Positions 4,555-30,919 of a stretch of DNA of 64,000 nt are shown piece by piece. The stretch's first letter is position 1, and every line of letters starts with the position of its first letter. The translations under genes were made by a program, and so were the position numbers. The DNA comes from a virus (Duplodnaviria > Heunggongvirae > Uroviricota > Caudoviricetes): positions 59,096 to 123,095 of IMG/VR virus record IMGVR_UViG_3300029305_005988. One strand, written 5' to 3'. The notes under the pieces are model-generated. The model worked only from the letters and a program-made list of their open reading frames with translations, was not told where the DNA came from and made no database searches.

Positions 4555-4558
4555 AGAT

Positions 4559-5509: not shown

Positions 5510-5608
5510 AACCTCTTGACAAATCCGTCAAGATGTGATATAATAATAATGTCGAGAGGGAGAGGAAGCAATCCCCTATGACAGAAAGAGAGGAAAAAGA
5601 AAAATCCA

Positions 5609-6346: not shown

Positions 6347-6377
6347 TCTCTCCCCACAAAAAAAATAAAAAAATTTT

Positions 6378-6415
6378 CAAAAACCTATTGACAAATACCA
6401 AAAAGTATGGTATAA
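6378..6415 (+). promoter_or_regulatory. early promoter
   Basis: ttttcaaaaacctattgacaaataccaaaaagtatggtataat. Confidence 0.55.
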
Positions 6416-6491
6416 TATAAATGTAAACAAGAGGGAAACCTCAAAATAAAAATAATATGGGTTGCGACCTACCGCAAGAGAGGAAAAAATT

Positions 6492-6902
6492 ATGGCAGAA
6501 ATCAAGGAAATCAAGTACACGCAGAAGCAGATGTTCGAAGCAATCCTCGCAGAGACTGACCGCACCGACGAAATTGGCGGTATTCCGTCCGCAGTTTTCA
6601 AGGCGTTCGCAGAGAAGAAAATTGCGCAGTTGGAGAGTAAGTCGGGCAAGACGAGCGCAAAGCGCACCGAGGAACAGGACGCTTTCATGGAAATTATCCG
6701 CGATGTTCTCGCAGAGTATCCCGATGTCAAGGGTATGCAGTGCGGCGCGGTCGCCAAGGACGAGCGTATTGCTTCGTTCAAGTGGGCAGACGGCAAGGAA
6801 ACCTCGGCGCAGAGAGTGTCGGCTATGCTGAAGAAGTTGGCCGACTGCGGTGATGTGATTAAGACCACGGACAAGAAAGTCACCTACTTTCGCCTTGCAT
6901 GA
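6492..6902 (+). CDS. small-protein paralog family member (MAEIK...; family with 7475-7903 and 16508-16897)
   Basis: shared N-terminal MAE(I/K)K, central DILAEV..G.LTVG, C-terminal K.V.Y(F/Y).LA. Confidence 0.55.
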   Translation: MAEIKEIKYTQKQMFEAILAETDRTDEIGGIPSAVFKAFAEKKIAQLESKSGKTSAKRTEEQDAFMEIIRDVLAEYPDVKGMQCGAVAKDERIASFKWADGKETSAQRVSAMLKKLADCGDVIKTTDKKVTYFRLA

Positions 6903-6929
6903 GTGAGGGGCGCAAGCCCCTCTACATAT

Positions 6930-6999
6930 CGACGGGTAGTTTAGTGGTTAAAACAGTCCGTAGGAAGGACAGAGGTGAGTTCGAGGCTCACACCGTCGC
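6930..6999 (+). ncRNA. tRNA-like element (perfect T-arm gtgag/ttcgagg/ctcac, 6/7 acceptor; anticodon unclear, possibly AGG)
   Basis: cloverleaf-like fold seen by eye; no CCA. Confidence 0.3.
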
Positions 7000-7070
7000 A
7001 GAGCATTAAATCCAAAACCCCCTATGCGCAAGGAGCGGTGAGAAAGTGAGAATGCTCAACCCATGGGATA

Positions 7071-7138
7071 GACCTCTGCGACGGCAGAGGTCTTTTTTCT
7101 TTCGTCGGCTCAGTGGCGGTCGCCACTGAGCCGTTTTG
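7071..7138 (+). terminator. tandem terminators
   Basis: gacctctgcgacggcagaggtc+tttttt and cggctcagtggcggtcgccactgagccg+tttt. Confidence 0.65.
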
Positions 7139-7221
7139 TGTGTTTTTATGCAAATTGCACAATTTTTCCGCCAAAATCTGCCTAAATTTTGTGCAAATTA
7201 TTTTCCCATTTTCTATTGACA

Positions 7222-7280
7222 AATTTTCATTTTTGTGGTATAATATTATCGTAGTCAAGGGGCGAGGGTGAGTTAAAACC
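7222..7280 (+). promoter_or_regulatory. promoter + conserved leader (copy 2 of duplicated element)
   Basis: ttgacaaattttcatttttgtggtataatattatcgtagtcaaggggcgaggg. Confidence 0.5.
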
Positions 7281-7374
7281 TCGAAAAAAATCTCCTCATT
7301 CTTCAATGTGAAACAAATGCGATAAAGTAGCATTGAGAATAGTATCGCAAAAAATTTTTGAAAAACTTTTCAAA

Positions 7375-7412
7375 AACCCCTTGACAAAAGCCACGAAATG
7401 TGGTATAATATA
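7375..7412 (+). promoter_or_regulatory. early promoter
   Basis: ccccttgacaaaagccacgaaatgtggtataat. Confidence 0.55.
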
Positions 7413-7474
7413 AGTGTAGTAAGGGAGAGCCACTCCCCACTAACAAAAAATAAAAATAAAGAGAGGTAGAAAAA

Positions 7475-7903
7475 ATGGCAGAAAAGAAGATTACCAAGAG
7501 AGAGAAGAATGAACTCCTTATCGCCGTACTTAACGGCAGAGTTCCCACCGAGGACGAGAAGAATATGCTTATCGAGCATATCACCCACGAGAACGAACTC
7601 CTTGCTCGTAAGGGTAGCAAGTCCGCAACCGCAACCCCTGCACAGAAGGACGCGCTTGCCGTCAGCGAGATTATCAAGGATATTCTTGCCGAGGTCGAGG
7701 GTAAGGGTTTGACCGTAGGCGCAATCCTTAAGGACGAGCGCATCAAGTCCTATGTGCGCCACAATGGAGAGGGTGTGTCCTCGCAGATGGTCACCTCTAT
7801 CTTCTCCAAGAACCCCAAGGATTTCGTGCGTACCGTCGAGAAGAAGGTCGCATACTACGCCCTCGCTTATGGTGAGGTCGTAGACGAGGGTGAGGGGGAT
7901 TAA
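7475..7903 (+). CDS. small-protein paralog family member
   Basis: see 6492-6902. Confidence 0.55.
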   Translation: MAEKKITKREKNELLIAVLNGRVPTEDEKNMLIEHITHENELLARKGSKSATATPAQKDALAVSEIIKDILAEVEGKGLTVGAILKDERIKSYVRHNGEGVSSQMVTSIFSKNPKDFVRTVEKKVAYYALAYGEVVDEGEGD

Positions 7904-7944
7904 CCCCCCTCTCCCCACGGAGAAAAATTTTTTCAAAAAGTTTT

Positions 7945-7985
7945 ACCAAACCTCTTGACAAATAGCCAAAGGTATGGTATAATAT
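7945..7985 (+). promoter_or_regulatory. early promoter
   Basis: cctcttgacaaatagccaaaggtatggtataat. Confidence 0.55.
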
Positions 7986-8019
7986 ATATGTCAAGAGGAT
8001 AGAAAGAGAGGTAAACAGT

Positions 8020-8445
8020 ATGGCAAGTATGTATACCCCCTACACCTTAAAAGGTGGCAAGGTGGTCAATGTGCCGAATAAGGCGGTCGCCAATCTGCAA
8101 GCACAGTTGAAACTGTCAAGAGCCGAAGCGGTTGAGTTGTGGCTTTATGACGAGGGATATATCGAGTGTCCCGAAGCAGACGAGTTGACCGCCAAGGCAA
8201 AAGAGAATAAAGTATCTCATGGGGCGCGCGCCGAGAATAAGCAGAAAACGCAGAGAGAGCGCGTGGTGAAAGAGGACAAGGTCAAGGAAGCAATTATCCA
8301 AGCGGTAGCCGATATGCTCCCCAACCTCAATGCCGAGAATGTGATTATTGAGAAAAAGGGAAAACTTATCACCTTTACCGTGGGTGAGGATAAATTCAAG
8401 TTTGACCTTATCCGTCAGCGACCGCCCAAGGAAAGCAAGGGGTGA
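8020..8445 (+). CDS. hypothetical protein (141 aa, charged)
   Basis: ORF with RBS agagaggtaaacagtatg. Confidence 0.5.
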   Translation: MASMYTPYTLKGGKVVNVPNKAVANLQAQLKLSRAEAVELWLYDEGYIECPEADELTAKAKENKVSHGARAENKQKTQRERVVKEDKVKEAIIQAVADMLPNLNAENVIIEKKGKLITFTVGEDKFKFDLIRQRPPKESKG

Positions 8446-8485
8446 AAACCCCTTGCTACATAAAACGAAAGCGAGGAAGAAGAAA

Positions 8486-8695
8486 ATGGCTAAAACTATG
8501 GAATTTACTTGTCCCGAATGTGGCGAAGATATTTTCATTGACGAGGTTGATGCAACGGTTGAGGATATGGTTGCCTATATCAAAATGACTTGTTGCAGTT
8601 GTGGAGCAGAATGGACTGATACCTTTCGCTTGACCTATAACGGATACGCTATGGGCAGTGAAGTTTGGGATAAGAATGGAGAGAAAATCGTATGA
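8486..8695 (+). CDS. zinc-ribbon protein (69 aa)
   Basis: CPECG...CCSCG; RBS gaggaagaagaaaatg. Confidence 0.5.
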   Translation: MAKTMEFTCPECGEDIFIDEVDATVEDMVAYIKMTCCSCGAEWTDTFRLTYNGYAMGSEVWDKNGEKIV

Positions 8696-8928
8696 CGGCA
8701 TATGAAGAATTGAAAGCGTGGTGCGAGAAACACCTTGGAGATAAATATAGAATAGAGATAATACCTGAAACAACTGAATATTATACAACAATGTATATTC
8801 TCAAGGGTGAGGAAGAGATATTTTACGCCGCCTTTGATGCCGAAGAATATTTCATTGGAATGAGCAGTGCCACTTGGGACGAGTTCCAAGAACATATTGA
8901 ATTGGCAGAAAGAGAGGGAAAAATATAA
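8692..8928 (+). CDS. hypothetical protein (78 aa)
   Basis: ORF, ATGA overlap. Confidence 0.5.
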   Translation: MTAYEELKAWCEKHLGDKYRIEIIPETTEYYTTMYILKGEEEIFYAAFDAEEYFIGMSSATWDEFQEHIELAEREGKI

Positions 8929-8948
8929 GCGCCAAACGCACTAAAAGA

Positions 8949-8976
8949 AAACAGAGGGTAAAGCCCTCTGTTTTTT
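8949..8976 (+). terminator. rho-independent terminator
   Basis: cagagggtaaagccctctg+ttttttat. Confidence 0.65.
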
Positions 8977-8989
8977 ATCTGCACCAATC

Positions 8990-9210
8990 GCGTTCACATC
9001 TTGTTCACAATTCGACGGGTCGCTAGCCATCGGCTAGCCCCGACTTCCACATTCCACTACCATTCCATATATACGCGATCGAAAAATGGTTGTTTCAATT
9101 TCACTCTCATTTTCCCGCAAACCTAGACCCTTGCTCTATACCGGGCGCCTGAACTAGCGCGGGCCGCGGACAATCGCGAAAGCCCGTCTAAGGCCTAGAC
9201 TAGCACCTTC
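8990..9210. repeat. GC-rich palindrome/iteron-like non-coding block (gctagccatcggctagc, cgcgggccgcg, cctagac x2)
   Basis: local GC well above the flanks; palindromes seen directly. Confidence 0.4.
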
Positions 9211-9587
9211 CATACTTTATACGCCAACTTTTGCTGTTTGTTTCATTTAATTATTTTCCTATAATTAGCATTTTTATCAATTTTTTCGCATAATATGTGA
9301 ATATTTTATCAAAAATGCCATGTTTTAATGTATTTTCCTTGTTTTAGTTCTTTCAATAGTGCTAAAATTTAATCACAGAAACAAAAATATGACAATGCGC
9401 GCCTAGATTCAAGAGAAAAAGTTGATTTTTAGTGAAAATTATGGTATAATATAAGTAGAAAATGAATAGTGGCGCAATAGCAAAGAAGGAGGTTGCTGTT
9501 GGGTCAAGAGAAGAAAGTTTTTAGGGAAGCCGTGACTTGGGGGTAGTGTAGGTGCGCATTTCCAAAATTTGGTAAAAATGTAAAAAT

Positions 9588-9618
9588 ATGGAAAGGCGCT
9601 TAATTCGCGCCTTTCTTT
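9588..9618. terminator. bidirectional terminator hairpin aaaggcgcttaattcgcgccttt
   Basis: T/A runs on both sides; closes minus-strand module. Confidence 0.5.
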
Positions 9619-9701
9619 AGTCTCCAGTCTGACACTAATATTGGACAGTCTCCAAACTCTGACTTAAAGCGCAAACGCGCCGCAGCAAAGTATCCTTTTT
9701 C

Positions 9702-10274
9702 TTTAGAGATGTCTTCGCCCTGCTCTTGACGATAAAAAGCATTAGCTGCTTCAGACTCAGATATATGTTCTTCAAACATAATTTGGCGCCAACGTTCTAG
9801 AATCTATTGATCAAGAGGTTCGTATGTGCTATACCATACCCAGCGCCTAACGCCATTAGATTCTCCATATTCATCAAATACGGGACCAACATAGCGCTTA
9901 CTTACACCCTGTACATTATCATGCCCATACTTCTCTCTGCCAAAAGCGCATAACGCTTCACGAGTAGTTTTAGCTTTGCTATTAGGCTTAAACTCAGTAC
10001 CAAGCGCAGCAATAGTAAACATCTTGTAATCTTCTTGTTTTTGCGCCGTAGAAATTAAATTCTTGCGCGGTAAAGGTTGATAGGTGCCATAAATCTCATT
10101 AATTTTAATACGAATTGGGCGCCCATCCAATAATTCATAGTCATAGAAGTTGCTAATATGTTCTAACAACTCTTCTCTACGGGACTCCCATTGATTCTTT
10201 TTAATACCTGTCAATAGCCAGAATTCTTTTTTAAAGTCATAAATGTGTCCTACTTCAATTTGCATATTATTCAC
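9702..10274 (-). CDS. hypothetical protein; in-frame TAG at 9804-9806 (157 aa to TAG, ~190 aa if read through to TAA 9702)
   Basis: ORF 9804-10274 plus 34 open codons after TAG; RBS aaaggagtgaataat. Confidence 0.45.
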
Positions 10275-10459
10275 TCCTTTCTTAATTGATAAATAGCAAC
10301 TTCTCCTGAAAATTTGTCCTTATCTATAATATATATAGGGACAAAAATTAGGGTAGAAGTTTCTCAGGAAGACTTCTTCCTATTCATATTTATATTAAAA
10401 AAGCAATAGATAAATTAACTAATTTTGACCAAGCGCCGAACCTCGATTTATACTTCTTA

Positions 10460-10590
10460 AACCTGGACCCGCGCCAAAAAAGAGGTATGCGTTAGCATAC
10501 CCCTAGGGCGCCGATCTCTCCTTTATATCGACGCCCTCTCCTTTATCTCCTAGTCCATAGTATTATTAACCTGGACCGGCGCTTACATCA
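10460..10590. repeat. direct repeats aacctggacc(c/g)gcgc x2 and ctctcctttat x2
   Basis: seen in intergenic region of minus module. Confidence 0.4.
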
Positions 10591-10945
10591 ATCCTTTGAA
10601 GAAATCTTCATCATTAAACTTCTCTTGCATCTTCAATAGCTGAACATACATAGGGATCATCTTCTCCATCTTAATGATTGCGGTCTCCAGCTCCTTGATA
10701 TCTTCTTCAGTCCACTCTTCTCCATCTTCAAAGAGGTCAAATGCCTCAGTATATGCGAGAACTGCATTAATCAAATAGGCGCGGCCTTCTTGGAGAAGAT
10801 CTTCTTTACTCTTTTGATTTGCAGCAGCTTCTTGCTCTGCGCGCAATGCTTCTTCTTGTCTAGCTTTTTCTGCGCGGATGTCGGCTAGCGTCTTTTCAAT
10901 TTCCTCTTCAGAAGCTCCATTCCAGATCATTTCTTCAATATTCAT
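10583..10945 (-). CDS. hypothetical acidic coiled-coil protein (120 aa)
   Basis: ORF; AT-rich-class promoter on minus strand at ~10955-11010. Confidence 0.5.
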   Translation of the reverse strand: MNIEEMIWNGASEEEIEKTLADIRAEKARQEEALRAEQEAAANQKSKEDLLQEGRAYLINAVLAYTEAFDLFEDGEEWTEEDIKELETAIIKMEKMIPMYVQLLKMQEKFNDEDFFKGLM

Positions 10946-10954
10946 TAGTTTATA

Positions 10955-11010
10955 TCTCCTTTACTTTTCTATATATATTATATCATATTTTTTATATTAT
11001 TTCAATAAGG
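10955..11010 (-). promoter_or_regulatory. minus-strand promoter (ttgaaataatataaaaaatatgatataat)
   Basis: reverse complement matches second promoter class. Confidence 0.45.
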
Positions 11011-11111
11011 AAGACGAAGACGAGGGATGGGAGATGGTGGTTCTGGAGTCGGTTGCACCACACATCCACACTCTCTTATGCTCTCTTATATTTTTTTATA
11101 TTTTCTTATAA

Positions 11112-11372
11112 TTATAATACAATCTCCCACCACTTTGTATCTTCACTTAATATTCCTTCTTCTTGCAATCTTACTGTATACCAATATCTTGCATCAATTT
11201 CTTTTAACATCTCTTCTCTATCCACATTGTTTTCAATCATATCTTCTAATCTTTCTATCCATTTATTCTATTCTTCTACTATTACCACTCCTGCATGACT
11301 TAAACAATTAATCTAATCTTCATATTCCTTTTTTGCTTCTGGATATTTCTCCAACAACTCTTTTAACATCAT
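11112..11372 (-). CDS. hypothetical protein (86 aa) with 2 in-frame TAG
   Basis: RBS aaggagggttatagaatgatg; MMLKELLEKYPEAKKEYED*INCLSHAGVVIVEE*NKWIERLEDMI...; ends TAA. Confidence 0.45.
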
Positions 11373-11386
11373 TCTATAACCCTCCT

Positions 11387-12099
11387 TAAAAATTAAATCC
11401 AGCAATTTTCTTCTTTATCTCATCCTCATCTTGATCGTGGACGCAGTCCACGGGAGGGATAGACGAAGTCTTTCCCGACAAATTCTAATTATAATCATAA
11501 TTCTAATTATAATCATAATTCTAATAAGGAAACTTTGGAAACTTGGAAACATTTCCAGTTTCCTTAATTCCATCACAACTTTCCAAACTTTCTTGGAAAC
11601 TTTCAGAAACATTATCTACAATTTCCATATTTCCTAATGTTTCCAAACTTTCTTGGAAATTTCCAATGTTTCCAGAAATTTCTGGAAACTTTCCTAATGT
11701 TTCCTTATTTTCCAGTAAATGTGGAAACTCTGTGCGGATTTTTGTAAACATTTTTGATACTGCTGGCGGCTGAACTCCAAGCTCGCGGGCAATTGCCGCC
11801 TGTGTCATACCACTATTTTTCATTTCAATAATTCTACGATATTTCTCTTCAGAAGCAGCTATTTTAGCATCGTACCTATTCTTGCTTTGCGCAATTCTAT
11901 CTACATATCCTTCAAGAGCATCTTCAATATTCATATCATCACTACTAATATCTCCAGTAAGTATAGCTTCTAAAAAACTAATTGCATACTCTCCACCTTT
12001 AACAGGGTCTCTTTGATACCACTTCTTTGCCGTTTCAAACATCTTTCCATATACAATACCACTTTTTCTTACAGGATTGTTTTTAAACTCTTTAATCAT
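11387..12099 (-). CDS. HTH-containing protein (MTQAAIARELGV) with repetitive C-terminal tail; TAG at 11521-11523 (core 11521-12099 = 192 aa)
   Basis: ORF 11521-12099; if TAG is sense, extends through 18-bp tandem repeats (QNYDYN x2) to TAA abutting next RBS. Confidence 0.5.
11461..11520. repeat. 18-bp tandem repeat aattctaattataatcat x~3
   Basis: seen directly. Confidence 0.7.
11530..11700. repeat. repeat-rich block (ttccaaactttcttggaaa / tttccagaaatttctggaaa variants)
   Basis: multiple direct/inverted copies seen; encodes SFQESLE-type repeats. Confidence 0.6.
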
Positions 12100-12123
12100 T
12101 TCCGATACCTCCGATCCCTTATT

Positions 12124-12300
12124 TTAAACCTAAGACAATTTGCGCATAGCCTCTTGTAACTCAAGACTATCTTCAAATACATAATTATCAAAATAAGGCT
12201 TCTTCTCGTCAGGTACCACTCTAATAATCTTAAATCCCAACTTGCGCAATTCATACGCCATTTTTCGAGTGTAAATCACTCTTTCATTCATTTGATCCAT
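12124..12300 (-). CDS. hypothetical small protein (~58 aa); TAG-GTT-TAA at 3' end
   Basis: MDQMNERVIYTRKMAYELRKLGFKII...; starts overlapping previous TGA. Confidence 0.4.
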
Positions 12301-12484
12301 TTCCGTTTACGCGGCGCAAATAGTTCTCTAATTGCTACTTCACCCAAGCGGCAGGCGCATCCCTGTTGATAAACTTATAAAGCTAATCAGGATTATCTAA
12401 TTTTGCCTCTTGCGCAATCAACTTATAAGTATAACCTTTTACGCGCATCTCCTTTAACTAAAATATTATTTCTTCACGAGTCAT
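12288..12484 (-). CDS. small HTH protein (65 aa) with 3 in-frame TAG
   Basis: MTREEIIF*LKEMRVKGYTYKLIAQEAKLDNPD*LYKFINRDAPAAWVK*QLENYL...; RBS gaaaggagttagaaatg. Confidence 0.45.
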
Positions 12485-12509
12485 TTCTAACTCCTTTCAC
12501 TATTATATA

Positions 12510-12580
12510 AAAATTAAGGTAGTAATTGTATCTATTTTTGTCCAAATTTTTTACCATAATACTACCTTAATTTGCCAATT
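12510..12580. repeat. inverted repeat aaggtagta...tactacctt (9-bp arms)
   Basis: seen; possible operator/terminator between minus genes. Confidence 0.4.
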
Positions 12581-12745
12581 TTTCGACGATATGTTCTTTT
12601 CATGTTTTTTCTTATCTCGTCATCTTTAATTGATCTGCAACAATCTGTTGTTATTCCACCTTTTTTCAAAAGCAAATTCAATTAAAATCGTAACAAAATC
12701 GTGTTGGTTTGAAATGCGCCTAATCTTGCCCATTGGCGCCTTTTA

Positions 12746-13102
12746 TTAACAGCCATAAGTCTTCTTTATATCATGAGTAGCATATTCCAAATGGTCAGTC
12801 ATTGCGCGAATATTTGAAAGATCAAACTGTGTAACAACCTCATCTTCATTCTAATCTAATCGCCGCTCTAAAGCATTTACTCTATCCACTAACTTATCTA
12901 CATTAGCTTCAGCGCTAATTAATCTCCAAATCAAATCTCGTAAATCATAATCAGCATCTCCAATGTGAATGATAATAGTCTGCTCTCGAAGAATAGATCT
13001 TGGAAGACCACTTAACATCTCATAATCAATCACTTCTTGTTCACATGTAATATCAACAGGCTAAGACATAAAAATCTCTTTATCAAAACTATCTATCATC
13101 AT
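12746..13102 (-). CDS. hypothetical protein with 2 in-frame TAG (ORF 12851-13033 extended both ways)
   Basis: MMIDSFDKEIFMS*PVDITCEQEVIDYEMLSGL...RRLD*NEDEVVTQF...; ATGA overlap with upstream gene. Confidence 0.4.
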
Positions 13103-13515
13103 TCTACCTCTCTTTTATAGTGTAGTGTTTTAAGCGCCGATCGTAGCTCAGAGCATTCTTTTTTAGGCACAAAATTCTTCTTAAGGTCATTGATTTGCGC
13201 ATCTATCCTCTTAATTTCTGTAATAAGGCTATCAGTTATATTTTCAATAGCATAGTCATTAGCCTTAATAACTCCACTACAATACAAATTACCGCTATTC
13301 GCACTAGCTATTCCATAAGCGGTGTTGCTTCCTTCAGTTGCTAAATCAAAAGTACAATCAACCTCCGTCGCAGAGTCCGCGCTGAGACTTAAACTGCAAT
13401 CTTTAATATATCCCTTCATTACCTCATCACCGTTTGCACTATAACAAGCAACCGAGTAGGGTCTATTAAAACTATCTCCAAACCATGCTTCATTTGTTTT
13501 CTACCAAATAGCCAT
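13099..13515 (-). CDS. hypothetical protein (138 aa) with TAG at codon 5; C-terminal LKTLHYKREVE motif
   Basis: MAIW*KTNEAWF... joins ORF 13099-13419; C-terminus shared with 32256-32477. Confidence 0.5.
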
Positions 13516-13516
13516 T

Positions 13517-13994
13517 ATTTACCTCCACTCTTTTCGCTACAAATTCCAATATTTATCATATAATCCAATAACCCCAACTGTTTTATAATGGTGCGCTCGG
13601 CGCCTTCAGGCAGCTTGTGGTCAAAAAATAATTTAATTTCATAGTTATCTCTTTCAAATGGCGACAATGCTTCAACTTCTCCCTGCTCATAATCAATAAC
13701 TAAAAGCTAATCTCCATTATCGAAACAGGTAATCACTTTTCCATCTAATTGAAGCGCACTTTTTATTCCAATTTCAGCTTTAGCATGTGCCTCTATATCC
13801 ATTTGCGCAAGGTCTTGAATATATTTACTGCCTTTTGCGCCAATCATAATGTATTTAGTTGGAGTATATGGTGTAAAATCTATGCTTTCTTTCTCGCAAA
13901 GCCGCTATAGGCGCCGATTCTTCACTATTAGTCGCCCATAGTCAAACCCAATATATGTCAATATCAAAAATAAAAACAATCCCGTCCAGAACAT
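13517..13994 (-). CDS. membrane-anchored hypothetical protein (~159 aa) with 2 in-frame TAG
   Basis: MFWTGLFLFLILTYIGF... hydrophobic N-terminus; RBS aaaaggagaagcagatg. Confidence 0.4.
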
Positions 13995-14109
13995 CTGCTT
14001 CTCCTTTTATCTCTTTAATCTTTTATACACTTTAATTATACAATAAAATTAAAATAAAGTCAAGTGTTCCTTCCCATCAGCACCTTTTCAATTACCTTTT
14101 ATTTTCTAA

Positions 14110-14160
14110 TTGATTTTTTGAAAAAAATATGATAAAATATATGTGTAAATAAAAGAAAGA
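14110..14160 (+). promoter_or_regulatory. AT-rich-class promoter (ttgattttttgaaaaaaatatgataaaat)
   Basis: second promoter class consensus TTGATTTTTAATAAAAATTATGWTATAAT. Confidence 0.5.
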
Positions 14161-14174
14161 GAGGAAATGAATAA

Positions 14175-14486
14175 ATGAGTATTCGAGTAAATGCAATTCA
14201 TGTTATTAACATTGACGACATTTGTGACGAATTCAATACTTCTGGTAGAGATTATAAATTTTTAGAGGGCGCCGAAAATGGTAGTTATACATTTTTAAAC
14301 ACAGACGAAGATGCTCTTGAAGAAGCTCGTAATGAACTTGATGCTGCAATGGAAAGATGCGCTCAATCTGAAAGCAAAATATGGGAAAGTAAAAAGTTAT
14401 ATGAAGCAGAAGTAATGTATGACCTCATTAACTATTTACACTATGCTGGTTATAAAGACGGCGTTCTTGTTTACACAGCTTGGTAA
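14175..14486 (+). CDS. hypothetical protein (103 aa)
   Basis: ORF+RBS. Confidence 0.5.
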   Translation: MSIRVNAIHVINIDDICDEFNTSGRDYKFLEGAENGSYTFLNTDEDALEEARNELDAAMERCAQSESKIWESKKLYEAEVMYDLINYLHYAGYKDGVLVYTAW

Positions 14487-14528
14487 GCGCACTGGAAAAA
14501 TTTGGAAATTCGCAAAGGAGTAGTTAAT

Positions 14529-14771
14529 ATGAATACCATCAAAGTAACTGTTGGAAATCATTTTTATCATGGAGTTATTGAAGAATTTATCTGCTCAAAT
14601 GTAGATATCTCTGATCTTGAAGAAATGGAATATTGCGCAGAAGAATGCGTAGGTCAATATATGGAAATGCATGAGGATATCGCGCACGGCTATTGCCCCG
14701 ATGTCTCATATGAAGATCTCGTAGAAGCGTGTTATTATTCTATTGAGGAGGTTAATACAAATGAACTTTAA
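14529..14771 (+). CDS. hypothetical acidic protein (80 aa)
   Basis: RBS aaaggagtagttaatatg. Confidence 0.45.
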   Translation: MNTIKVTVGNHFYHGVIEEFICSNVDISDLEEMEYCAEECVGQYMEMHEDIAHGYCPDVSYEDLVEACYYSIEEVNTNEL

Positions 14772-14973
14772 TATCCTTAATATGGCAATAGCAGAGCATT
14801 ATGAAAAAGTTGAAAATGCTATCAATTATCTTGTAGATCTTTATTATGATGACTATGATATTACAAATCCTCTTATTTTTAACCAAGTAATGACACGCTA
14901 TGGTCTTGATGATGACGGCTTTGAATCAGAAAGAGAGCATATCATGCAAGAGGTGGAAAGGAGAATTAAATAA
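14761..14973 (+). CDS. hypothetical protein (70 aa)
   Basis: RBS gaggaggttaatacaaatg. Confidence 0.45.
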   Translation: MNFNILNMAIAEHYEKVENAINYLVDLYYDDYDITNPLIFNQVMTRYGLDDDGFESEREHIMQEVERRIK

Positions 14974-14974
14974 A

Positions 14975-15247
14975 ATGTGGACAATTTTTATATCTTGTTG
15001 TGCAGTTATATTTATTATAGTTTTAATCTGTCTTCTTGTGAGAGATGTTCGTGAAAAGAAAACAAATCCTCCTCAAGAGATTAAAGAAACACACACTCGA
15101 TTATTGAAAGCAACCTGTAATAGATGTAATCGTAAATTTTATGTTTCCGAAAAAGACGCTCTTGCTCAATATGATTATGGAACAAAGTTTCTTATAGCCT
15201 GCCCACATTGTGGAAAACTTATGAAAGTAAAAGTTAAGGAGGAATAA
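14975..15247 (+). CDS. TM + C-terminal zinc-ribbon protein (90 aa)
   Basis: hydrophobic N-term, CNRCN...CPHCG. Confidence 0.45.
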   Translation: MWTIFISCCAVIFIIVLICLLVRDVREKKTNPPQEIKETHTRLLKATCNRCNRKFYVSEKDALAQYDYGTKFLIACPHCGKLMKVKVKEE

Positions 15248-15249
15248 AA

Positions 15250-15414
15250 ATGGTTCAAGGTGTTTGTAGCAATTGCGGCGCTAGTTTCTATCTTAATCTA
15301 GAAACAATTAAAGAATATGCACAAGAGCATAATCAAAAATTAAATGAGGGTGTTGAAGTATGGTGTCCTCATTGCAATGCAGTGCATCTGCTTCGTTTAG
15401 AAGATAAATAGTGA
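15250..15414 (+). CDS. zinc-ribbon protein (54 aa); ends ...TAG TGA
   Basis: CSNCG...CPHCN; TAG immediately followed by TGA. Confidence 0.45.
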
Positions 15415-15416
15415 TT

Positions 15417-15450
15417 AAAAGAGGCGCATACGCGCCTCTTTTATTTTTGT
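15417..15450 (+). terminator. rho-independent terminator
   Basis: aaaagaggcgcatacgcgcctctttt+attttt. Confidence 0.65.
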
Positions 15451-15513
15451 TGATTTTTTATTTTTTTTATGTTATAATATACATATAAGAAAAAACAAAG
15501 AAAGAGAAATAAT

Positions 15514-16305
15514 ATGACTAAACAAGAAGTGTTTAAATATCTCTTAAAAGCAATTCCTTATTTTGACGAAAATTTTTGCGATGAAAATAGAGATGAATAT
15601 ATTGATATTCCTTTACAAAAAGCACACCTCCCTTTTGAATATTCAATAGAAAGTGGAATTACAAAAACAGTAATTCTTATCAAGGGCGCCAACTTTGTAA
15701 TCAAGATTCCTTTTACTTGTTGGTTTAATGAAGATCAATTTGATGAAGAACTAAATGACTGGCATTATCAAATGGAGGAACTTCAAGAAAAAGAGCGTGA
15801 GAACTTTATTATTGATAATCCTGAGCCTTGTTGTACCGATGAACGCTGGTTTTATGAATTCTTTGGAGCCTATCATGATGGATTAAATGAAGAGTTTTCA
15901 GGCTTTGACTATTGTCACCTTGAATCTGCAATTTACAGACAAGCGGTAGAAGAAGGTCTTGGCGCCTATTTTGCAGAAGAAGGCGCGCTTGGGGAAATAG
16001 ATGATACAACCATCTATTATCAAACGAGATGCACTCCTGTTAGCTCTCTTGAGATTGATTACAATAGTCAAGAGTATCAAAAGAAAAGTAAACTTTCAAA
16101 AGACCTCTGTAAGAAACTTGAAATTGATTGTTTTCATCCTATTTGGATTGCTGATTTTGTTGAACGCTATGGTGCGGCTGAGTTTAAACGCCTTTATTCT
16201 TTCTTGGAGTTTTATCAAATTGGCGATTTGCGATCTTGCAACATTGGCTATCTTGATGGCGCGCCAATCTTGTTTGATTATTCAGGATATAGAGAGTGGG
16301 ATTAA
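15514..16305 (+). CDS. hypothetical protein (263 aa)
   Basis: long ORF with promoter+RBS; no motif recognised. Confidence 0.55.
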   Translation: MTKQEVFKYLLKAIPYFDENFCDENRDEYIDIPLQKAHLPFEYSIESGITKTVILIKGANFVIKIPFTCWFNEDQFDEELNDWHYQMEELQEKERENFIIDNPEPCCTDERWFYEFFGAYHDGLNEEFSGFDYCHLESAIYRQAVEEGLGAYFAEEGALGEIDDTTIYYQTRCTPVSSLEIDYNSQEYQKKSKLSKDLCKKLEIDCFHPIWIADFVERYGAAEFKRLYSFLEFYQIGDLRSCNIGYLDGAPILFDYSGYREWD

Positions 16306-16507
16306 AAAGATAGATTAATGGTTCCGCCTTGAAAAACTTAAAATTTTTTGATATAATAATAATGTAAGATAAAGAAAGCGAAAGAATAAAGAGTTAATAA
16401 AAGTTGCTTCTGAGTTCAGATGCTTTCAGTTGAAAAAATAAAAAATTTTTGGTATAATAAAATCACCAAATAAAAATAATATTTAATTAAAAAAGGAGAA
16501 ACAAAAA

Positions 16508-16897
16508 ATGGCAGAGATTAAGAGAACCACAGCTATGAAGCTCAATGAATGGAAGGAGCTTTACGCAGACAACGCAGAGTTTGTTGAGTACGCAGAGAAT
16601 GAGCTTGCAAAGCTCGAGAAGAAGAACGCAAAGGCAAGAGAGCGTGCAGCAGAGAAGAGAGCTATCGGCGACGAGCTTCAGGCTTCTGTTCTTGCTACAA
16701 TTACCGCTGATCCTAAGACTCGTGACGACATTCTTGCAGAGGTTGTTGAGGCAACTGGCGATGAAGAGCTCACGGTTGGTAAGATTCAGTCTAAGCTCAA
16801 CAACATCGTTGAGGCTGGTCAGGCTTCTAAGTGCAAGGTTAAGACCGAAGATGGCAAGACCAAGACTGCTTATACGCTTCCCGTTGACGCAGAGTAA
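16508..16897 (+). CDS. small-protein paralog family member
   Basis: see 6492-6902; two upstream promoters. Confidence 0.55.
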   Translation: MAEIKRTTAMKLNEWKELYADNAEFVEYAENELAKLEKKNAKARERAAEKRAIGDELQASVLATITADPKTRDDILAEVVEATGDEELTVGKIQSKLNNIVEAGQASKCKVKTEDGKTKTAYTLPVDAE

Positions 16898-16915
16898 TTT
16901 GATTTAAGAAAAAAG

Positions 16916-16957
16916 TAAAAACAACAACTCCTTAAAAAGGAGTTGTTGTTTTTTATT
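16916..16957 (+). terminator. strong rho-independent terminator
   Basis: aaaaacaacaactcctt aaaa aggagttgttgtttttt. Confidence 0.75.
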
Positions 16958-17020
16958 TGATTTTTAATAAAAAGTATGTTATAATATATTATAAAATAAA
17001 TTAAAAGGAGAAATAAAAAG

Positions 17021-17329
17021 ATGGCACGCGGAGCTGAAGCAAAAGCAAAAATCCAGAAACAAATTCTTGAGGCTTTCCCTGGAAGCTTCACATACAATGA
17101 CGGTAAAGAAATTCGTATTCCCACTCCCGAGGGCGCTGAAGTGGTTCAGATTAAGGTTGTTCTTACTTGCGCCAAAGAGAATGTGGAAATGGGCGCTGAT
17201 AATGCAATGCCTGGCGACTTCCCTGCACCAAAGATGACTGCGCCGACCCCTGAGCGCACTGAACCTGTGAAGCCTTCAGAAACCGAGAAGCAAGCAGTTG
17301 CAGATCTCTTAAAGTCTTTAGGTCTTTGA
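17021..17329 (+). CDS. hypothetical protein (102 aa; MARGAEAKAKI..., Pro-rich C-half)
   Basis: ORF+RBS. Confidence 0.5.
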   Translation: MARGAEAKAKIQKQILEAFPGSFTYNDGKEIRIPTPEGAEVVQIKVVLTCAKENVEMGADNAMPGDFPAPKMTAPTPERTEPVKPSETEKQAVADLLKSLGL

Positions 17330-17355
17330 TTTCAAAAACAGAAAGGAGAGATATT

Positions 17356-17655
17356 ATGGTAAGACCCGCAAAATTACTGAAATATGTTGAATGGCAAGAT
17401 GCAGGTGGAAATTGGTTGTGTAATGACACCTCTGATCTATGCAGTCCACGCGCCTTATGGTGGGTGCCGGCGCGAATGCTTAATATCTCTCCCGAAGAGT
17501 ATGTTCAGCTATTGATTGAGCAATTTCATCCAGATCGTATTCAATATTTCCAAGATACCGATGTTCTTGTTTACTCTTGGAAGAATATTAACGACATGAG
17601 AAAGTATAAGAACTGGTTAAACGCACAAGCAAGAAAATATCAATATATCATTTAA
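17356..17655 (+). CDS. hypothetical protein (99 aa)
   Basis: RBS gaaaggagagatattatg. Confidence 0.5.
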   Translation: MVRPAKLLKYVEWQDAGGNWLCNDTSDLCSPRALWWVPARMLNISPEEYVQLLIEQFHPDRIQYFQDTDVLVYSWKNINDMRKYKNWLNAQARKYQYII

Positions 17656-17733
17656 TAATAGTAATCTTAATTGATTTTATTAAAAAAATTTGATATAATA
17701 TATATGTAATAATGAGAAAGGAAGAAAAAACAA

Positions 17734-18024
17734 ATGGAAAATAATGAACGAGTATTCTATCATTATCGAGTTAAGTGGTATTATGATAGTAAACCAACCT
17801 TTAGCGAGGGATTTCTTTTTGCATATGGAGTCTCTGAAGCGGCGGCAATCATTGATGAAAGTTTTGATTGTATTGACGAGGTTAAGCTTTCCGCAATTTG
17901 TGATGGAAGACTGCTTGATTTTGAAGACCTTCTTGATTATTTGCAAGGTGAATACAATATAAATAAGGCGCTTGGCCCTCAGGTTTACGAAGCAATTCAA
18001 AACGCGATAGAAGTAAAAGAATAA
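17734..18024 (+). CDS. hypothetical protein (96 aa)
   Basis: ORF+promoter. Confidence 0.5.
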   Translation: MENNERVFYHYRVKWYYDSKPTFSEGFLFAYGVSEAAAIIDESFDCIDEVKLSAICDGRLLDFEDLLDYLQGEYNINKALGPQVYEAIQNAIEVKE

Positions 18025-18850: not shown

Positions 18851-18925
18851 GCGGGATTAACTCAGCGGAAGAGTAATCGCCTTCTAAGCGATAAGCCAAA
18901 GGTTCGAATCCTTTATCCCGTGCCA
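18851..18925 (+). tRNA. tRNA-Arg(TCT)
   Basis: cloverleaf by eye: stem atcgc/gcgat, loop cttctaa; T-loop ggttcgaatcc; CCA encoded. Confidence 0.6.
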
Positions 18926-19024
18926 GCATCCCAGAACTAGCCTTAATATATTATGCGACTTGCGATAATAAAGTCTGACATAATATATGCTGTCAGAGGC
19001 GGCAGCGGTTCTGGGGTAACATCT

Positions 19025-20417: not shown

Positions 20418-20425
20418 TTCATATA

Positions 20426-20498
20426 GGGAATTAGTTTAACAGTAGAATGACTGTCTCCAAAACAGTAGGCTGCGGGGCAGCACCGTAATTCCCTGCCA
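20426..20498 (+). ncRNA. degenerate tRNA-like (Trp CCA-type anticodon arm, no canonical T-arm)
   Basis: acceptor gggaatt/aattccc 7/7, stem actgt/acagt, loop ctccaaa; T-region replaced by ctgcggggcag. Confidence 0.3.
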
Positions 20499-22983: not shown

Positions 22984-23075
22984 TTTATCAATCACTATGA
23001 AACTTCTTTGATTTTTACAAAAAATTATGATATAATAAATATGTAAAATGAAAGAGAGGAAAAAAAGAAAAATAT

Positions 23076-23201
23076 GGAGTGGTAGCCCAACAGGCAGAGG
23101 CAATGGACTTGTCTGATGTTCGGTAACCTAGACTGGGTCAGCACCAGTATCAGGCACCAAAAATCCATCAAGTGAGGGTTCGAATCCCTCTCACTCTACC
23201 A
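23076..23201 (+). ncRNA. 126-nt tRNA-like gene with 55-nt insertion in anticodon loop
   Basis: acceptor ggagtgg/tcactct, D-arm gccc..ggc, anticodon stem atgga/tccat enclosing 55 nt, T-arm gaggg/ttcgaat/ccctc, CCA; own upstream promoter. Confidence 0.4.
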
Positions 23202-23356
23202 ATTACATATTAAGGTACGGGAATAAAGCGGCCCCGCTAAGTAAGAGCAGCTTAGAGCGAATGCCTTGATGAAAAGAATATTCTTTATATTAGGTGCCTA
23301 CTCGGGGAATACAGGTGGTAGGATAAATGTGACGACCCAGCCAGCCTAATATTTAT

Positions 23357-23713: not shown

Positions 23714-23864
23714 CTTACCCGTGAGTAGTGGGGCTCTCGGCATCGCCAGTAAATAGCTACTCAAACTCCCAACGGTAGAGCAAATGACCAGAACTAGGAG
23801 TTAAAATAAACGAGACTAAGGATGTGCGGCTGACAACCTACTGTCATTACATATGCGAGTTTAG

Positions 23865-23939
23865 TTCAGAAGTAGAATACCGCTCTGATAAAGCGGGGGT
23901 GCTTGGGGCAGTACCAAGAATTCGCACCAAAACTCAAGA
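23865..23939 (+). tRNA. tRNA-Ile(GAT) with non-canonical T-loop ggcagta
   Basis: stem ccgct/agcgg loop ctgataa; acceptor gcgagtt/aattcgc; CCA. Confidence 0.55.
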
Positions 23940-26199: not shown

Positions 26200-26275
26200 G
26201 CTGTGATAATTCAATTGGGAGAAGAGCCGGCGTCAAGCAGGCTAGTTGTGGGTTCGAGTCCCACTCACAGGTCCA
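26200..26275 (+). tRNA. tRNA with UCA-centred anticodon loop (cgTCAag, G33) - opal-reading/Sec-like candidate or mis-parse
   Basis: acceptor 6/7 (G1-G72 mismatch); T-arm gtggg/ttcgagt/cccac; CCA; anticodon stem gccgg/caggc with one mismatch. Confidence 0.3.
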
Positions 26276-27923: not shown

Positions 27924-28392
27924 CTGTTTTAACTGACTTTAATCTTTAATGAAAAAAGATAGTGAACAGTAAGCAAATTGGCAATATTACCGAAGTATCT
28001 GTTATGCTTGAGTTTTTAAAATTAGGATATAATATTTTAACTCCTTATGGAGATTGCGAACGATATGATTTTGTTGCAGATATTAATCATAAATTTTATA
28101 AAATTCAAGTAAAAACAGCAAAAAAAGATAATGGTAAAATCGAATTTAATACAGCATCCACTCATTATGTAGATGGAAAATGTATTCATGACTCTTATAC
28201 AAAAGATGAAATTGATTACATTGCAACTTATTTTAATAATAAGTGTTATTTAATTCCAATTGAGGAATGTGGAAAGCGCTCTGCTTCAATTCGTTTTGAA
28301 GCTCCTAAAAATGGACAAACCAGAGGAGTTCGAATGGCAGAAGATTATGAGTTGGAGGAAGTAATTAAAAGATTAAACTGATGTTAAAGCAA
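27924..28392 (+). mobile_element. intervening element in tRNA anticodon loop (group I intron-like or novel) encoding PD-(D/E)XK-like nuclease
   Basis: only ~40 nt 5' and ~11 nt 3' of non-ORF sequence, too little for a canonical group I core. Confidence 0.4.
27962..28381 (+). CDS. putative PD-(D/E)XK-fold homing endonuclease (139 aa), paralog of 30291-30905
   Basis: GDCERYDFVADIN...KIQVK motif block conserved with paralog (GEDCRYDMIVDIN...RVQVK); lies inside split tRNA. Confidence 0.45.
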   Translation: MNSKQIGNITEVSVMLEFLKLGYNILTPYGDCERYDFVADINHKFYKIQVKTAKKDNGKIEFNTASTHYVDGKCIHDSYTKDEIDYIATYFNNKCYLIPIEECGKRSASIRFEAPKNGQTRGVRMAEDYELEEVIKRLN

Positions 28393-28653: not shown

Positions 28654-28730
28654 GTCAGTCTAGCCCAATTGGCAGAGGCACTAGTCTTAGGAACTAGTTA
28701 GTGTGGGTTCGACTCCCTCGATTGACACCA
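28654..28730 (+). tRNA. class I (short variable arm) tRNA with anticodon TAG (Leu codon CUA) - atypical
   Basis: stem ctagt/actag loop cttagga; acceptor gtcagtc/gattgac; T-arm ~gtggg/ttcgact/ccctc; CCA. Confidence 0.45.
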
Positions 28731-29460: not shown

Positions 29461-29539
29461 ATAAGTAATCGAAAGTTCATTGATAATTGCATAAGAAAAT
29501 ATATAAGACATCTATAAAAGAAGGAGTTGAATTTATTAT

Positions 29540-30176
29540 GGGTTTTATTTATAAAGTTACAAATAAAGTCAATGGTAAAGTTTATATTGGAAAAACTTTA
29601 GACTCTTCTATAGAGGAGCGCTTTAAAGAACATATTAAAGAAGCTAAAGTAAAACAATATAATCGACCTTTTCATCTGGCTTTAAATAAGTATGGAGCAG
29701 AAAATTTCATAATTGAAGAAATTGAGCAAATTCCTGCAAATGAATTAAGCAAAAGAGAAATATATTGGATTTCTTTTTATCATTCTTATATTCACGATCC
29801 AGTTTCAAACGGATATAATGCCACTAAAGGTGGCGAAGGATCGCTAGAATATGACTATGATAAAGTTATTGTAGAGTATCATAAAACACAAAGTATTACT
29901 CAAACAGCCAATAATTTAAAATGTTCTATATCTACAGTACAGAGAGCTATTCGAGAATATAATGTTCCCGTATATAAACAGCGCGCCTGTGGAGTTAAAA
30001 TTATTGGCTATAATGATATGGAAGAATTAACTTTTGATTCTATCCGACAAGCTGCTGAATTTTTATCAAAACGATTAAATAAAGATATGCAGACAATACG
30101 AAAGCGAATTACTTCTATTATTAATCATAAACCTAATCAAAAAGGGTATGGTTATTACTGGAAAGAACAAGAATAA
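29540..30176 (+). CDS. GIY-YIG homing endonuclease (no in-frame TAG)
   Basis: MGFIYKVTNKVNGKVYIGKT...ERFKEH...YWISFYHS...GYNATKGG; ORF track 29487-30176. Confidence 0.7.
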
Positions 30177-30228: not shown

Positions 30229-30919
30229 AGTGGCCGATTGCACTCGCCTTGTTCGTAAATTTAAGACTTCCTATAAAGGAGGTTGATATAATGAATGAGA
30301 CAAAGATTAAAGGTTTAACCACTGAGCTTCAATGTCAATTATTCTTTACTCAATTGGGTTATAATGTTAGTATCCCGTTAGGAGAAGATTGTAGATATGA
30401 TATGATAGTAGATATTAATGGCATACTCTTGCGAGTTCAAGTAAAACACGCAACTGTTGCAGAAAATGGTATTACTATTTCTACTCGTTCTACTCAATCT
30501 AACACTTCAGGATCAAAAAGTTTAACCTATAATAAGGAACAAATTGATTATTTTGCAACTTTTTATAATAACCAGTGTTATTTAATTAAAGTTGAAGAAT
30601 GTTCAACTCAAAAAACTTTAGCTTTTACTAAAATTCAACAAATGCAGAACTTCATTGATGATTTTTTGGCTGAAAAAGAAATTCAAAGAATCTTAAATGG
30701 GGAAGATGCTATAGAAGATACTGTAATAGCAAATGTATATCAATATGATTTGCGTGGCAACTTAATAGGAGCCTATTCAAGTGCCGTTGCAGCAGCTGAA
30801 AGTTTAGGAGATCGCTCTAAAAATTCTCATATTACCAAATGCCTTAATGGGCATAGGCAAACAGCATATGGGTATAAATGGAGCAGGACACTATTGAAGT
30901 CTTAAACATTATGATCAAA
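30229..30919 (+). mobile_element. intervening element in tRNA anticodon loop encoding nuclease ORF
   Basis: no G at predicted 3' splice position, so a group I assignment is doubtful. Confidence 0.35.
30291..30905 (+). CDS. putative PD-(D/E)XK-fold homing endonuclease with C-terminal DNA-binding tail (GYKW), paralog of 27962-28381
   Basis: conserved block with paralog; RBS ataaaggaggttgatataatg. Confidence 0.45.
   Translation: MNETKIKGLTTELQCQLFFTQLGYNVSIPLGEDCRYDMIVDINGILLRVQVKHATVAENGITISTRSTQSNTSGSKSLTYNKEQIDYFATFYNNQCYLIKVEECSTQKTLAFTKIQQMQNFIDDFLAEKEIQRILNGEDAIEDTVIANVYQYDLRGNLIGAYSSAVAAAESLGDRSKNSHITKCLNGHRQTAYGYKWSRTLLKS

Follow-up and report, generated by a model that had tools for sequence, protein, structure and literature searches.

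The DNA analysed here, referred to as the window, is a stretch of 64,000 nucleotides (nt) from a virus of the class Caudoviricetes (IMG/VR record IMGVR_UViG_3300029305_005988, positions 59,096 to 123,095 of that record). It is part of a large phage genome with genes for gyrase A and B, an NAD-dependent ligase, DnaB, RecJ and a sigma factor, and it contains an array of transfer RNA (tRNA) genes at 18.8–31.7 kilobases (kb). At positions 23076–23201 lies a 126-nt gene for a full-length tRNA with a large insertion in its anticodon loop, which is the subject of this report. The insertion is an imitation of one half of a tRNA, placed inside the anticodon triplet, and the gene is a member of a recurrent and essentially undescribed class of tRNA-mimic introns inside the anticodons of phage tRNAs.

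Structure of the tRNA(UAA) gene

The outer tRNA has an acceptor stem of 7 base pairs (bp), GGAGUGG/UCACUCU, with the wobble pairs G1-U72 and G7-U66, followed by the discriminator A and an encoded CCA; a D stem of 3 bp; the anticodon stem AUGGA/UCCAU; and a perfect T arm, GAGGG-UUCGAAU-CCCUC. An earlier note on this DNA, made from its letters alone, had placed the acceptor, D-arm, T-arm and anticodon-stem helices and the ends of the gene where they were found here, whereas the anticodon loop, given there as 55 nt, is of 56 nt (23108–23163). The Rfam tRNA model RF00005 matched 23076–23198 end to end (model positions 1–71 of 71) with 43.7 bits, where the gathering score is 29 (E = 5.5e-6 in the search of the whole window), the insertion in the anticodon loop being displayed as 52 unaligned nt. 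A normal tRNA with other boundaries, which by the note would have refuted its reading, did not appear. The folding energy of the whole gene was uninformative (z = -0.99).

With default settings ARAGORN called 24 other tRNAs in the window and missed 23076–23201, and in its intron mode it called this region as a tRNA(UAA) with a 49-nt intron. When 23111–23159 were deleted in silico, the remaining sequence was called in the no-intron mode as a 77-nt tRNA(UAA), in which the anticodon loop CUUAAAA has the normal 7 nt, U33 and a purine at position 37. By the default and intron modes together it is the sole tRNA of the window with a UAA anticodon. The variable loop has 5 nt (CAAGU), as in a type I body, and the long variable arm of bacterial type II tRNA-Leu is absent from it.

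The earlier note had also credited the gene with a promoter of its own. A promoter-like site of the sigma-70 type does exist about 40 nt 5′ of the gene (Table 1), but the region has no more sites of this kind than shuffled sequences have. The stretch between this site and the tRNA is nearly identical at a related phage locus (L008/L009; loci are numbered here with the prefix L).

Table 1. Positions of the parts of the tRNA(UAA) gene, of the promoter-like site and of the candidate repair genes in the window.
Feature	Position	Strand	Description
Promoter-like site, sigma-70 type	23008–23036	+	TTGATT, 17-nt spacer, extended -10 TG-n-TATAAT; 10/12 matches
Exon 1, tRNA positions 1–34	23076–23110	+	Acceptor 5′ strand, D arm, AUGGA, C32, U33, U34; covariation with L007 and L031
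Anticodon stem	23103–23107 / 23164–23168		AUGGA/UCCAU
tRNA-mimic intron, 49 nt	23111–23159	+	ARAGORN intron call, structural script, covariation
Insert, acceptor 5′ strand	23111–23117	+	GUCUGAU
Insert, linker	23118–23131	+	14 nt; possible 3-bp mini D hairpin
Insert, T-like stem	23132–23136 / 23144–23148	+	ACUGG/CCAGU, loop GUCAGCA
Insert, acceptor 3′ strand	23149–23155	+	AUCAGGC
Insert, A73	23156	+	
Insert, CCA	23157–23159	+	
Exon 2	23160–23201	+	A35, A36, A37, A38, UCCAU, 5-nt variable loop, T arm, acceptor 3′ strand, A73, CCA
ATP-dependent RNA ligase, Rnl5-like	37636–38814	+	PF09414 (nucleotidyltransferase), PF21189 (N-terminal OB); candidate exon-sealing enzyme
P-loop polynucleotide-kinase-like protein	38916–39383	+	AAA_33; adjoins the ligase gene
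Calcineurin-like metallophosphoesterase	39376–39942	+	Candidate 3′-end healing enzyme; third of the heal-and-seal trio

The insert as a tRNA mimic

The insert is flanked by CUU on its 5′ side and AAAA on its 3′ side, and the insertion point falls between U34 and A35, inside the anticodon; since the intron begins with G and ends with A, the junction is unambiguous. The two ends of the insert pair in a helix of 7 bp (GUCUGAU/AUCAGGC), which on the 3′ side is contiguous with a 5-bp hairpin (ACUGG-GUCAGCA-CCAGU) and is followed by unpaired A-CCA. The whole corresponds to that half of a tRNA which comprises the acceptor stem, the T arm and the 3′ end, the linker standing in place of the D and anticodon arms. 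The inner CTGAT/ATCAG helix of the earlier note is a part of the 7-bp helix and does enclose 31 nt as described; the A-CCA that follows it, the abutting 5-bp hairpin, the likeness to a tRNA and the position within the anticodon had been overlooked. The mini D hairpin of the linker has one compensatory change, which is not significant, and is weakly supported.

The classical minimal substrate for bacterial RNase P is an acceptor/T minihelix with NCCA. Bacterial RNase P and the enzymes of tRNA 3′ ends recognise the acceptor/T stack, G1-C72, U at -1 and A73-CCA, and the D and anticodon arms are dispensable for them. The window insert has the form of such a minimal substrate, its 7-bp acceptor stem stacking directly on the 5-bp T stem and its N73-CCA being single-stranded, and U34 at -1 together with G+1 paired to C72 would provide a context favoured for RNase P cleavage.

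The insert alone matched no Rfam family at E ≤ 10, ribozymes and group I introns included, and the region 23000–23300 matched no ribozyme or intron family at E ≤ 1. Two other tRNAs of the window that were found by Rfam only, at 20425–20498 (44.8 bits, anticodon CCA) and 23855–23929 (44.7 bits, anticodon GAU), have the non-canonical T-loops GGCAGCA and GGCAGUA, respectively. Because the loop GUCAGCA of the insert is the same T-loop variant, GNCAGYA, the intron may descend from a tRNA of this type.

Homologues and intronless alleles

The first relatives were loci retrieved by way of a neighbouring protein, and further ones were obtained by pattern scans. At the syntenic place, L004 and L002 have a type II tRNA-Leu(UAA) that is split at GGACUU|...|AAAAUCC by tRNA-like inserts of 77 and 103 nt, respectively. 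A type II Leu(UAA) gene with an intron of this kind also occurs in L005. An intronless type II Leu(UAA) allele, GACTTAAAATC, with CTTAAAA uninterrupted, is present in L001. The 635-kb uncultured phage LR745206.1 has an intronless type I tRNA(UAA), with which the spliced window tRNA, exon 2 included, can be aligned and which also reads CTTAAAA across the junction. As both intronless genes read CTTAAAA, the junction 34|35 is fixed. The reading as Thr(UGU) (CUUGU + AA), preferred by ARAGORN in some copies, was rejected on account of these alleles and of the 7-bp inner stem, which begins at the G after CUU. With removal of 49 nt giving a canonical 77-nt tRNA and with homologues both with and without the insert, the option of a tRNA with a novel intervening sequence, one of those put forward in the earlier note, is borne out.

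The closest homologues of the window gene, with type I bodies and minihelix introns of 49–50 nt, are found in the viral contigs L007 and L010 and in L031, a contig binned with a metagenome-assembled genome (MAG) of Bacilli. The exact sequence of the window gene had no match in viral contigs, and none of the viral, metagenome and genome collections contains the window itself. Scans of metagenomes and genomes with the pattern TGGACTTG..CACCAAAAATCCA turned up 29 loci, among which only L019 and L031 are real and the others are coding sequences that match by chance. When the window gene and two further nested tRNAs were compared by BLAST with the phages of GenBank, no nested homologue appeared, and the intronless gene of LR745206.1 was the sole useful match.

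Another nested gene of L002, for Lys(UUU), contains a 78-nt insert which is itself scored as a tRNA by Rfam (31.4 bits). The 103-nt Leu(UAA) intron of the same locus (14146–14248) scores as a tRNA as well, with 34.8 bits, and its anticodon region in turn holds an insert of about 39 nt, possibly a second level of nesting.

As to tRNA bodies, short type I bodies with Leu anticodons (UAG, UAA, CAA) occur at 28654–28730 of the window and at 2965–3040, 3232–3307 and 3816–3889 of LR745206.1 (L171), in arrays shared with normal long-arm Leu tRNAs. Long variable arms, unusual for the isoacceptors concerned, were observed on tRNAs of 85–90 nt for Lys(UUU), Thr(UGU) and Ile(UAU) at 17521–17607, 18873–18957 and 13431–13520 of L001 and at 19467–19553 of L004.

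Compensatory changes and possible exchange between tRNA genes

In the covariation alignment of the window gene with those of L007 and L031 all pair cells (96/96) were standard, i.e., pairing was 100%. Changes on both sides of a pair numbered nine: three in the outer acceptor stem, one in the outer T stem, four in the inner acceptor stem and one in the inner hairpin. Controls in which the sequences were slid gave 38–50% pairing and 0–1 such changes. Because compensatory changes are found in both, with pairing complete, it follows that the outer tRNA and the inner mimic are both maintained.

Sequence is shared between introns of different tRNAs. One and the same D-arm, TAGCATAAGTAATGC, occurs in the intron of a Lys(UUU) gene of L041 (inserted at 34|35) and in that of a Gln(UUG) gene of L005 (35|36), and acceptor stems GUUUGAG/YUCAAGC were found in Leu(UAA) and Lys(UUU) introns alike. 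This sharing suggests that the nested introns are mobile between tRNA genes. The movers could possibly be free-standing homing endonuclease genes of the array, and a speculative origin of the introns is the insertion, at the RNA level, of a mature tRNA into a tRNA cut by an anticodon nuclease.

A recurrent class of nested tRNAs

Viral contigs were scanned for two T-loops separated by ...ACCA and 17–40 nt, and the counts given below cover the matches listed. Candidates were examined with a structural script, which asked for a 5-bp T stem, a 7-bp acceptor stem and NCCA in the inner element, for a 5-bp anticodon stem and a residual 7-nt loop in the outer one, and for a spliced sequence called as a tRNA by ARAGORN with the junction inside the anticodon. 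At least 21 distinct nested tRNAs were found in uncultivated phage contigs, belonging to at least seven tRNA species, namely Leu(UAA), Lys(UUU), Gln(UUG), Thr(UGU), Ile(UAU), Ile(GAU) and Asn(GUU), with inserts of 44–135 nt. The insert follows the first anticodon nucleotide in 13 of the 21 listed tRNAs and the second in 8, and the residual loop has 7 nt in all of them; alternative registers aside, no other loop length was found among the cases from the structural search. U is present at -1 in 19/21, G at +1, paired with C72, in 16/21, and A as N73 in 19/21.

The structural candidates numbered 94 in real sequence as against 2 in reversed sequence. This excess, the recurrence in other phages and the compensatory changes argue for a design beyond chance. 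When the CCA requirement was dropped, validated cases had tails of 4 nt only, NCCA in every one (19/19), and none had tails of 0–3 nt. Most of the loci behind this control had been fetched with ACCA-containing patterns, but seven nested cases that were reached without a CCA-containing pattern also end in NCCA. The inner sequences are conserved only in the helices, G1-C72 and ACCA, and the shortest introns (44–50 nt) retain the acceptor stem, the T hairpin and NCCA and nothing more. At minimum free energy the introns of L057 and L081 are predicted to fold into precisely the acceptor/T minihelix, the ACCA tail remaining free. Since such nested genes are missed by default tRNA finding (by ARAGORN in the present case), the tRNA repertoires of phages and the analyses of codon supply that use them are incomplete.

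Genome context

CCA is encoded in 22 of the 24 ARAGORN-called tRNA genes of the window, so the phage system must mature 3′ ends with an encoded CCA. A ligase, a kinase and a phosphoesterase gene, which together make up a heal-and-seal trio (Table 1), are located 14 kb downstream of the tRNA(UAA) gene. The best solved relative of the ligase is the RNA ligase of Naegleria gruberi (5cot, E = 3e-26). Homologues of the kinase occur within a few kb of nested tRNAs in L031, L011/L019 and L058, that of L011 matching the kinase domains of Pnkp RNA-repair enzymes, and a homologue of the metallophosphoesterase is about 6.5 kb from the nested Ile(UAU) tRNA of L057, so that a kinase or a phosphoesterase lies near nested tRNAs in four other loci. 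In L011 (1287–3293) and L058 (6006–7991) a conserved protein of about 660 amino acids, 64% identical between the two and with no Pfam or PDB match, adjoins a Pnkp-like kinase fusion of 310 amino acids a few kb from the nested tRNAs.

Five free-standing genes of the homing-endonuclease type are present at 27962–28381, 29487–30176, 30249–30905, 35083–35787 and 53060–53926, three of them within the tRNA array; they belong to the PD-(D/E)XK, GIY-YIG and HNH types, some with NUMOD1.

The window further contains a type II tRNA at 42221–42319 with the loop CUCUAAA and the amber-suppressor-like anticodon CUA, and an opal-suppressor-like tRNA(UCA) at 26200–26275, labelled 'SeC' by ARAGORN; the two hint at recoding of stop codons in part of the genome. 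In the first 18 kb (1–18000), open reading frames (ORFs) of at least 120 amino acids cover 52% of the sequence with the standard code, as compared with 85% for 32–64 kb, and no single stop reassignment clearly restores coding there. The guanine-plus-cytosine content is higher (42–46%) at 1–10 kb. The coding sequence of gyrase B is divided between an N-terminal ORF and a Toprim/C-terminal ORF, which are separated by an ORF of 218 amino acids without a Pfam match (43891–45171, 45477–46133 and 46271–46912 for the whole region); the split may be due to an intron or to the insertion of a mobile element. A protein of 829 amino acids (32561–35050) has the shoulder domain of the major vault protein (PF11978, E = 2e-24) and a vault repeat.

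Proposed splicing route and alternatives

The boundaries of the intron coincide with the ends of a mature tRNA, +1 and CCA76, and the recognition elements are kept, for which reason processing by RNase P and by 3′-end enzymes is proposed. We consider it about an even chance that the intron which splits the tRNA(UAA) gene at U34|A35 is excised by tRNA end-processing enzymes and the exons are sealed by a ligase. The precursor would take the fold of a tRNA from whose anticodon loop another, small tRNA-like domain projects. RNase P would recognise the inner acceptor/T minihelix (U at -1, G+1-C72, A73-CCA) and cut at the 5′ junction, so that exon 1 ends in a 3′-OH on U34, and a tRNA 3′-end endonuclease would cut directly after the encoded CCA, which is the 3′ junction, leaving exon 2 with a 5′-phosphate on A35. 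Candidates for the 3′ cut are some RNase Z enzymes and sometimes RNase E, cleavage right after an encoded CCA having been reported for the RNase Z of T. maritima and in some cases for RNase E (PMC7479834). The outer acceptor and anticodon stems would keep the halves joined until an ATP-dependent RNA ligase, plausibly the Rnl5-like enzyme of the window to judge from gene content, sealed the nick in the anticodon loop to give the 77-nt tRNA with the loop CUUAAAA; the released minihelix would probably be a by-product. Such an intron could restrict key tRNAs (UAA, UUU, UUG and others) to the time after expression of the ligase.

Several points weigh against excision by end-processing enzymes, beginning with the fact that we infer each enzymatic step of it. 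The contig L031 was binned with a Bacilli MAG, and the host may therefore be a member of the Bacillota. The Bacillus RNase Z is inhibited by CCA and a host of this type is not known to have RNase E; if the host does belong there, no obvious enzyme is at hand for the 3′ cut. Rnl5 enzymes prefer nicks in duplex RNA over nicks in loops. A kinase and a phosphoesterase are unnecessary for 3′-OH and 5′-phosphate ends, and their presence hints at cuts that leave 2′,3′-cyclic phosphate and 5′-OH, or at mere repair of damage by anticodon nucleases. The relatives retrieved through the ligase, 10 contigs in a search limited to close relatives and with no background rate, contained no known nested tRNA, a result that is uninformative on co-occurrence. 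The hairpin loop GUCAGCA of the window intron is not a canonical T-loop, the minimum-free-energy fold of this intron departs from the comparative structure inside the acceptor stem, and the outer tRNA combines a Leu anticodon with the lack of a long variable arm. The class statistics are in part subject to ascertainment bias, most loci having been fetched by patterns that contain ACCA.

The main rival explanation accepts the same intron and has it cut out by a dedicated phage or host endonuclease that leaves 2′,3′-cyclic phosphate and 5′-OH ends, which a kinase, a phosphoesterase and a ligase then heal and seal; it would be a bacterial-virus analogue of the enzymatic tRNA splicing of eukarya and archaea or of the T4 Pnkp/Rnl1 repair. 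Several anticodon nucleases (colicin E5, zymocin gamma-toxin, RloC) cut at 34|35 and 35|36, sites with which the intron junctions coincide, and the complete trio in the window, the recurrence of Pnkp-like kinases near nested tRNAs and the want of an obvious after-CCA endonuclease in Bacillota would all suit such an enzyme. It would leave unexplained, however, why the features for RNase P and 3′ processing (U at -1, G1-C72, A73, CCA and the acceptor/T stack) are kept, and repair trios are common in tRNA-rich phages, where they serve counter-defence. No candidate for the enzyme was found, and no EndA/Sen splicing endonuclease domain, among the 50 ORFs of the window (itself part of a genome) scanned against Pfam. 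We regard this explanation as unlikely, and as the most probable of the alternatives considered.

For the regulatory RNA and the decoy suggested in the earlier note as descriptions of the gene nothing was found in favour, and the released minihelix could still serve as either. It is improbable, in our estimate, that the outer tRNA is never rejoined and that the CCA-ended minihelix is released as a decoy or competitor for tRNA-targeting defences or tRNA-binding enzymes, or that the gene is a source of tRNA halves. The conservation of the inner element with compensatory changes would agree with such a role, and phage tRNAs are known to counter tRNA-targeting defences (for example PMC10264068). 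Against it, the inner sequence is unconserved beyond the helices, G1-C72 and ACCA and ranges over 44–135 nt in length, the cloverleaves of the outer tRNAs are kept perfect and show compensatory changes of their own, and an exact 7-nt residual loop with a sensible anticodon in seven tRNA species would be needless if the halves were never joined. Less probable again is a selfish tRNA-derived insertion that has made the tRNA gene a pseudogene and is kept by drift or by shielding the site from a homing endonuclease. Homing endonuclease genes do stand among the tRNA array (at 27962, 29487, 30249 and 35083), the introns look mobile between tRNA genes and the outer acceptor stem of the window gene has G-U pairs at both ends; yet compensatory changes preserve outer and inner helices across diverged phages, residual loops are uniformly of 7 nt (alternative registers aside), and the disrupted gene would be the window's only UAA tRNA. 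A small self-cleaving or self-splicing ribozyme in the anticodon loop is the least credible of these explanations, to which we give hardly any weight. Small ribozymes are frequent in phage genomes and the CUGAUG of the insert superficially resembles part of the hammerhead core, but this motif is part of the acceptor stem that covaries and has not been conserved in either L007 or L031, the Rfam searches described above matched no ribozyme family, and the features conserved across the class are tRNA-like helices and NCCA only.

Excision by tRNA end-processing enzymes followed by ligation is preferred to each of these alternatives. A third route of tRNA splicing, in which anticodon-lodged mimics running from +1 to CCA76 are removed by RNase P and a CCA-end endonuclease, the halves are joined by a phage repair ligase and the introns move between genes, is proposed tentatively, with a likelihood that we put somewhat below even. 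If true, it would be a bacterial splicing route made up of RNase P and 3′-end processing, i.e., of enzymes of every cell, plus an RNA ligase, and it would give the RNA ligase and Pnkp systems of phages a housekeeping role beyond the repair of damage by defences.

Comparison with known systems

In the bacterial world tRNA introns are held to be self-splicing group I introns, and protein-catalysed tRNA splicing is held to be archaeal and eukaryal. Group I introns splice themselves, have about 200 nt or more with a P1–P9 core and end in a terminal G. The one in the tRNA-Leu(UAA) of bacteria and plastids is inserted at the same site, U34|A35; the window intron shares with it the UAA anticodon of the host tRNA and this insertion point and nothing else. 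A group I intron was rejected, in accordance with the earlier note, which had thought the element too short for one: the insert has 49 nt, there was no match to Intron_gpI and the 3′ end is ...ACCA in place of a terminal G.

With the protein-catalysed splicing of archaea and eukarya the window gene shares a mature domain folded around an intron in the anticodon loop, the subsequent action of an RNA ligase, and probably an excision by proteins or ribonucleoproteins. A bulge-helix-bulge (BHB) motif has two 3-nt bulges that contain the splice sites, with a helix of 4 bp between them. A BHB intron was likewise rejected, and the earlier note had also considered BHB splicing unfit: the junctions here flank a helix of 7 bp, the unpaired stretches are of 3 nt on the 5′ side and 8 nt (ACCA + AAAA) on the 3′ side, and the position is 34|35 and not 37|38. 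Unlike the BHB endonuclease, the nucleases proposed here are enzymes of tRNA end processing.

In T4 infection Pnkp and Rnl1 repair the host tRNA that is cut in its anticodon loop by the host nuclease PrrC, and this phage kinase/phosphatase and RNA ligase are analogous to the trio of the window. The break in the present case would differ from that of T4 in being a programmed step in the maturation of the phage's own tRNA, and the ligase is Rnl5-like, not Rnl1. Modules of tRNA shape that recruit RNase P and RNase Z to both of their ends are known from the tRNA punctuation of mitochondria and from the mascRNA of MALAT1. There the flanks are released and not rejoined, whereas the flanks here are two tRNA halves in need of ligation.

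The closest precedent was found in the Lak megaphages. In full-text searches of the literature, tRNA-like or nested tRNA introns were found described only by Devoto et al. (2019, Nat Microbiol, PMC6784885), who reported 'enigmatic introns' of unknown mechanism in the anticodon loops of Lak tRNAs and noted that a tRNA-Thr(UGU) intron may 'itself encode a possible tRNA'. By our reading of Table S6 of that paper, the Lak introns resemble the window intron in lying in the anticodon loop of a phage tRNA and in having a tRNA-like domain, acceptor and T arm, that abuts the 3′ junction. They differ in their position, about 36|37 to 37|38 as compared with 34|35, in a hairpin of about 30–45 nt and a spacer that precede the tRNA-like domain, whereas the window intron starts at the tRNA-like +1, and in the lack of a clean CCA end; the class described here consists of the mimic alone, from +1 to CCA76, inside the anticodon triplet. 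In the one example of Lak Thr(UGU), the corrected 3′ junction falls, by the same reading of Table S6, right after the inner discriminator. This is the site at which RNase Z would cut a CCA-less precursor, and it is consistent with 3′-end processing as the step that sets the 3′ junction in both systems. The class of tRNA-mimic introns thus offers a concrete hypothesis for the 'enigmatic introns' of 2019, and there is a substantial chance that the class represents a mechanistically new splicing pathway.

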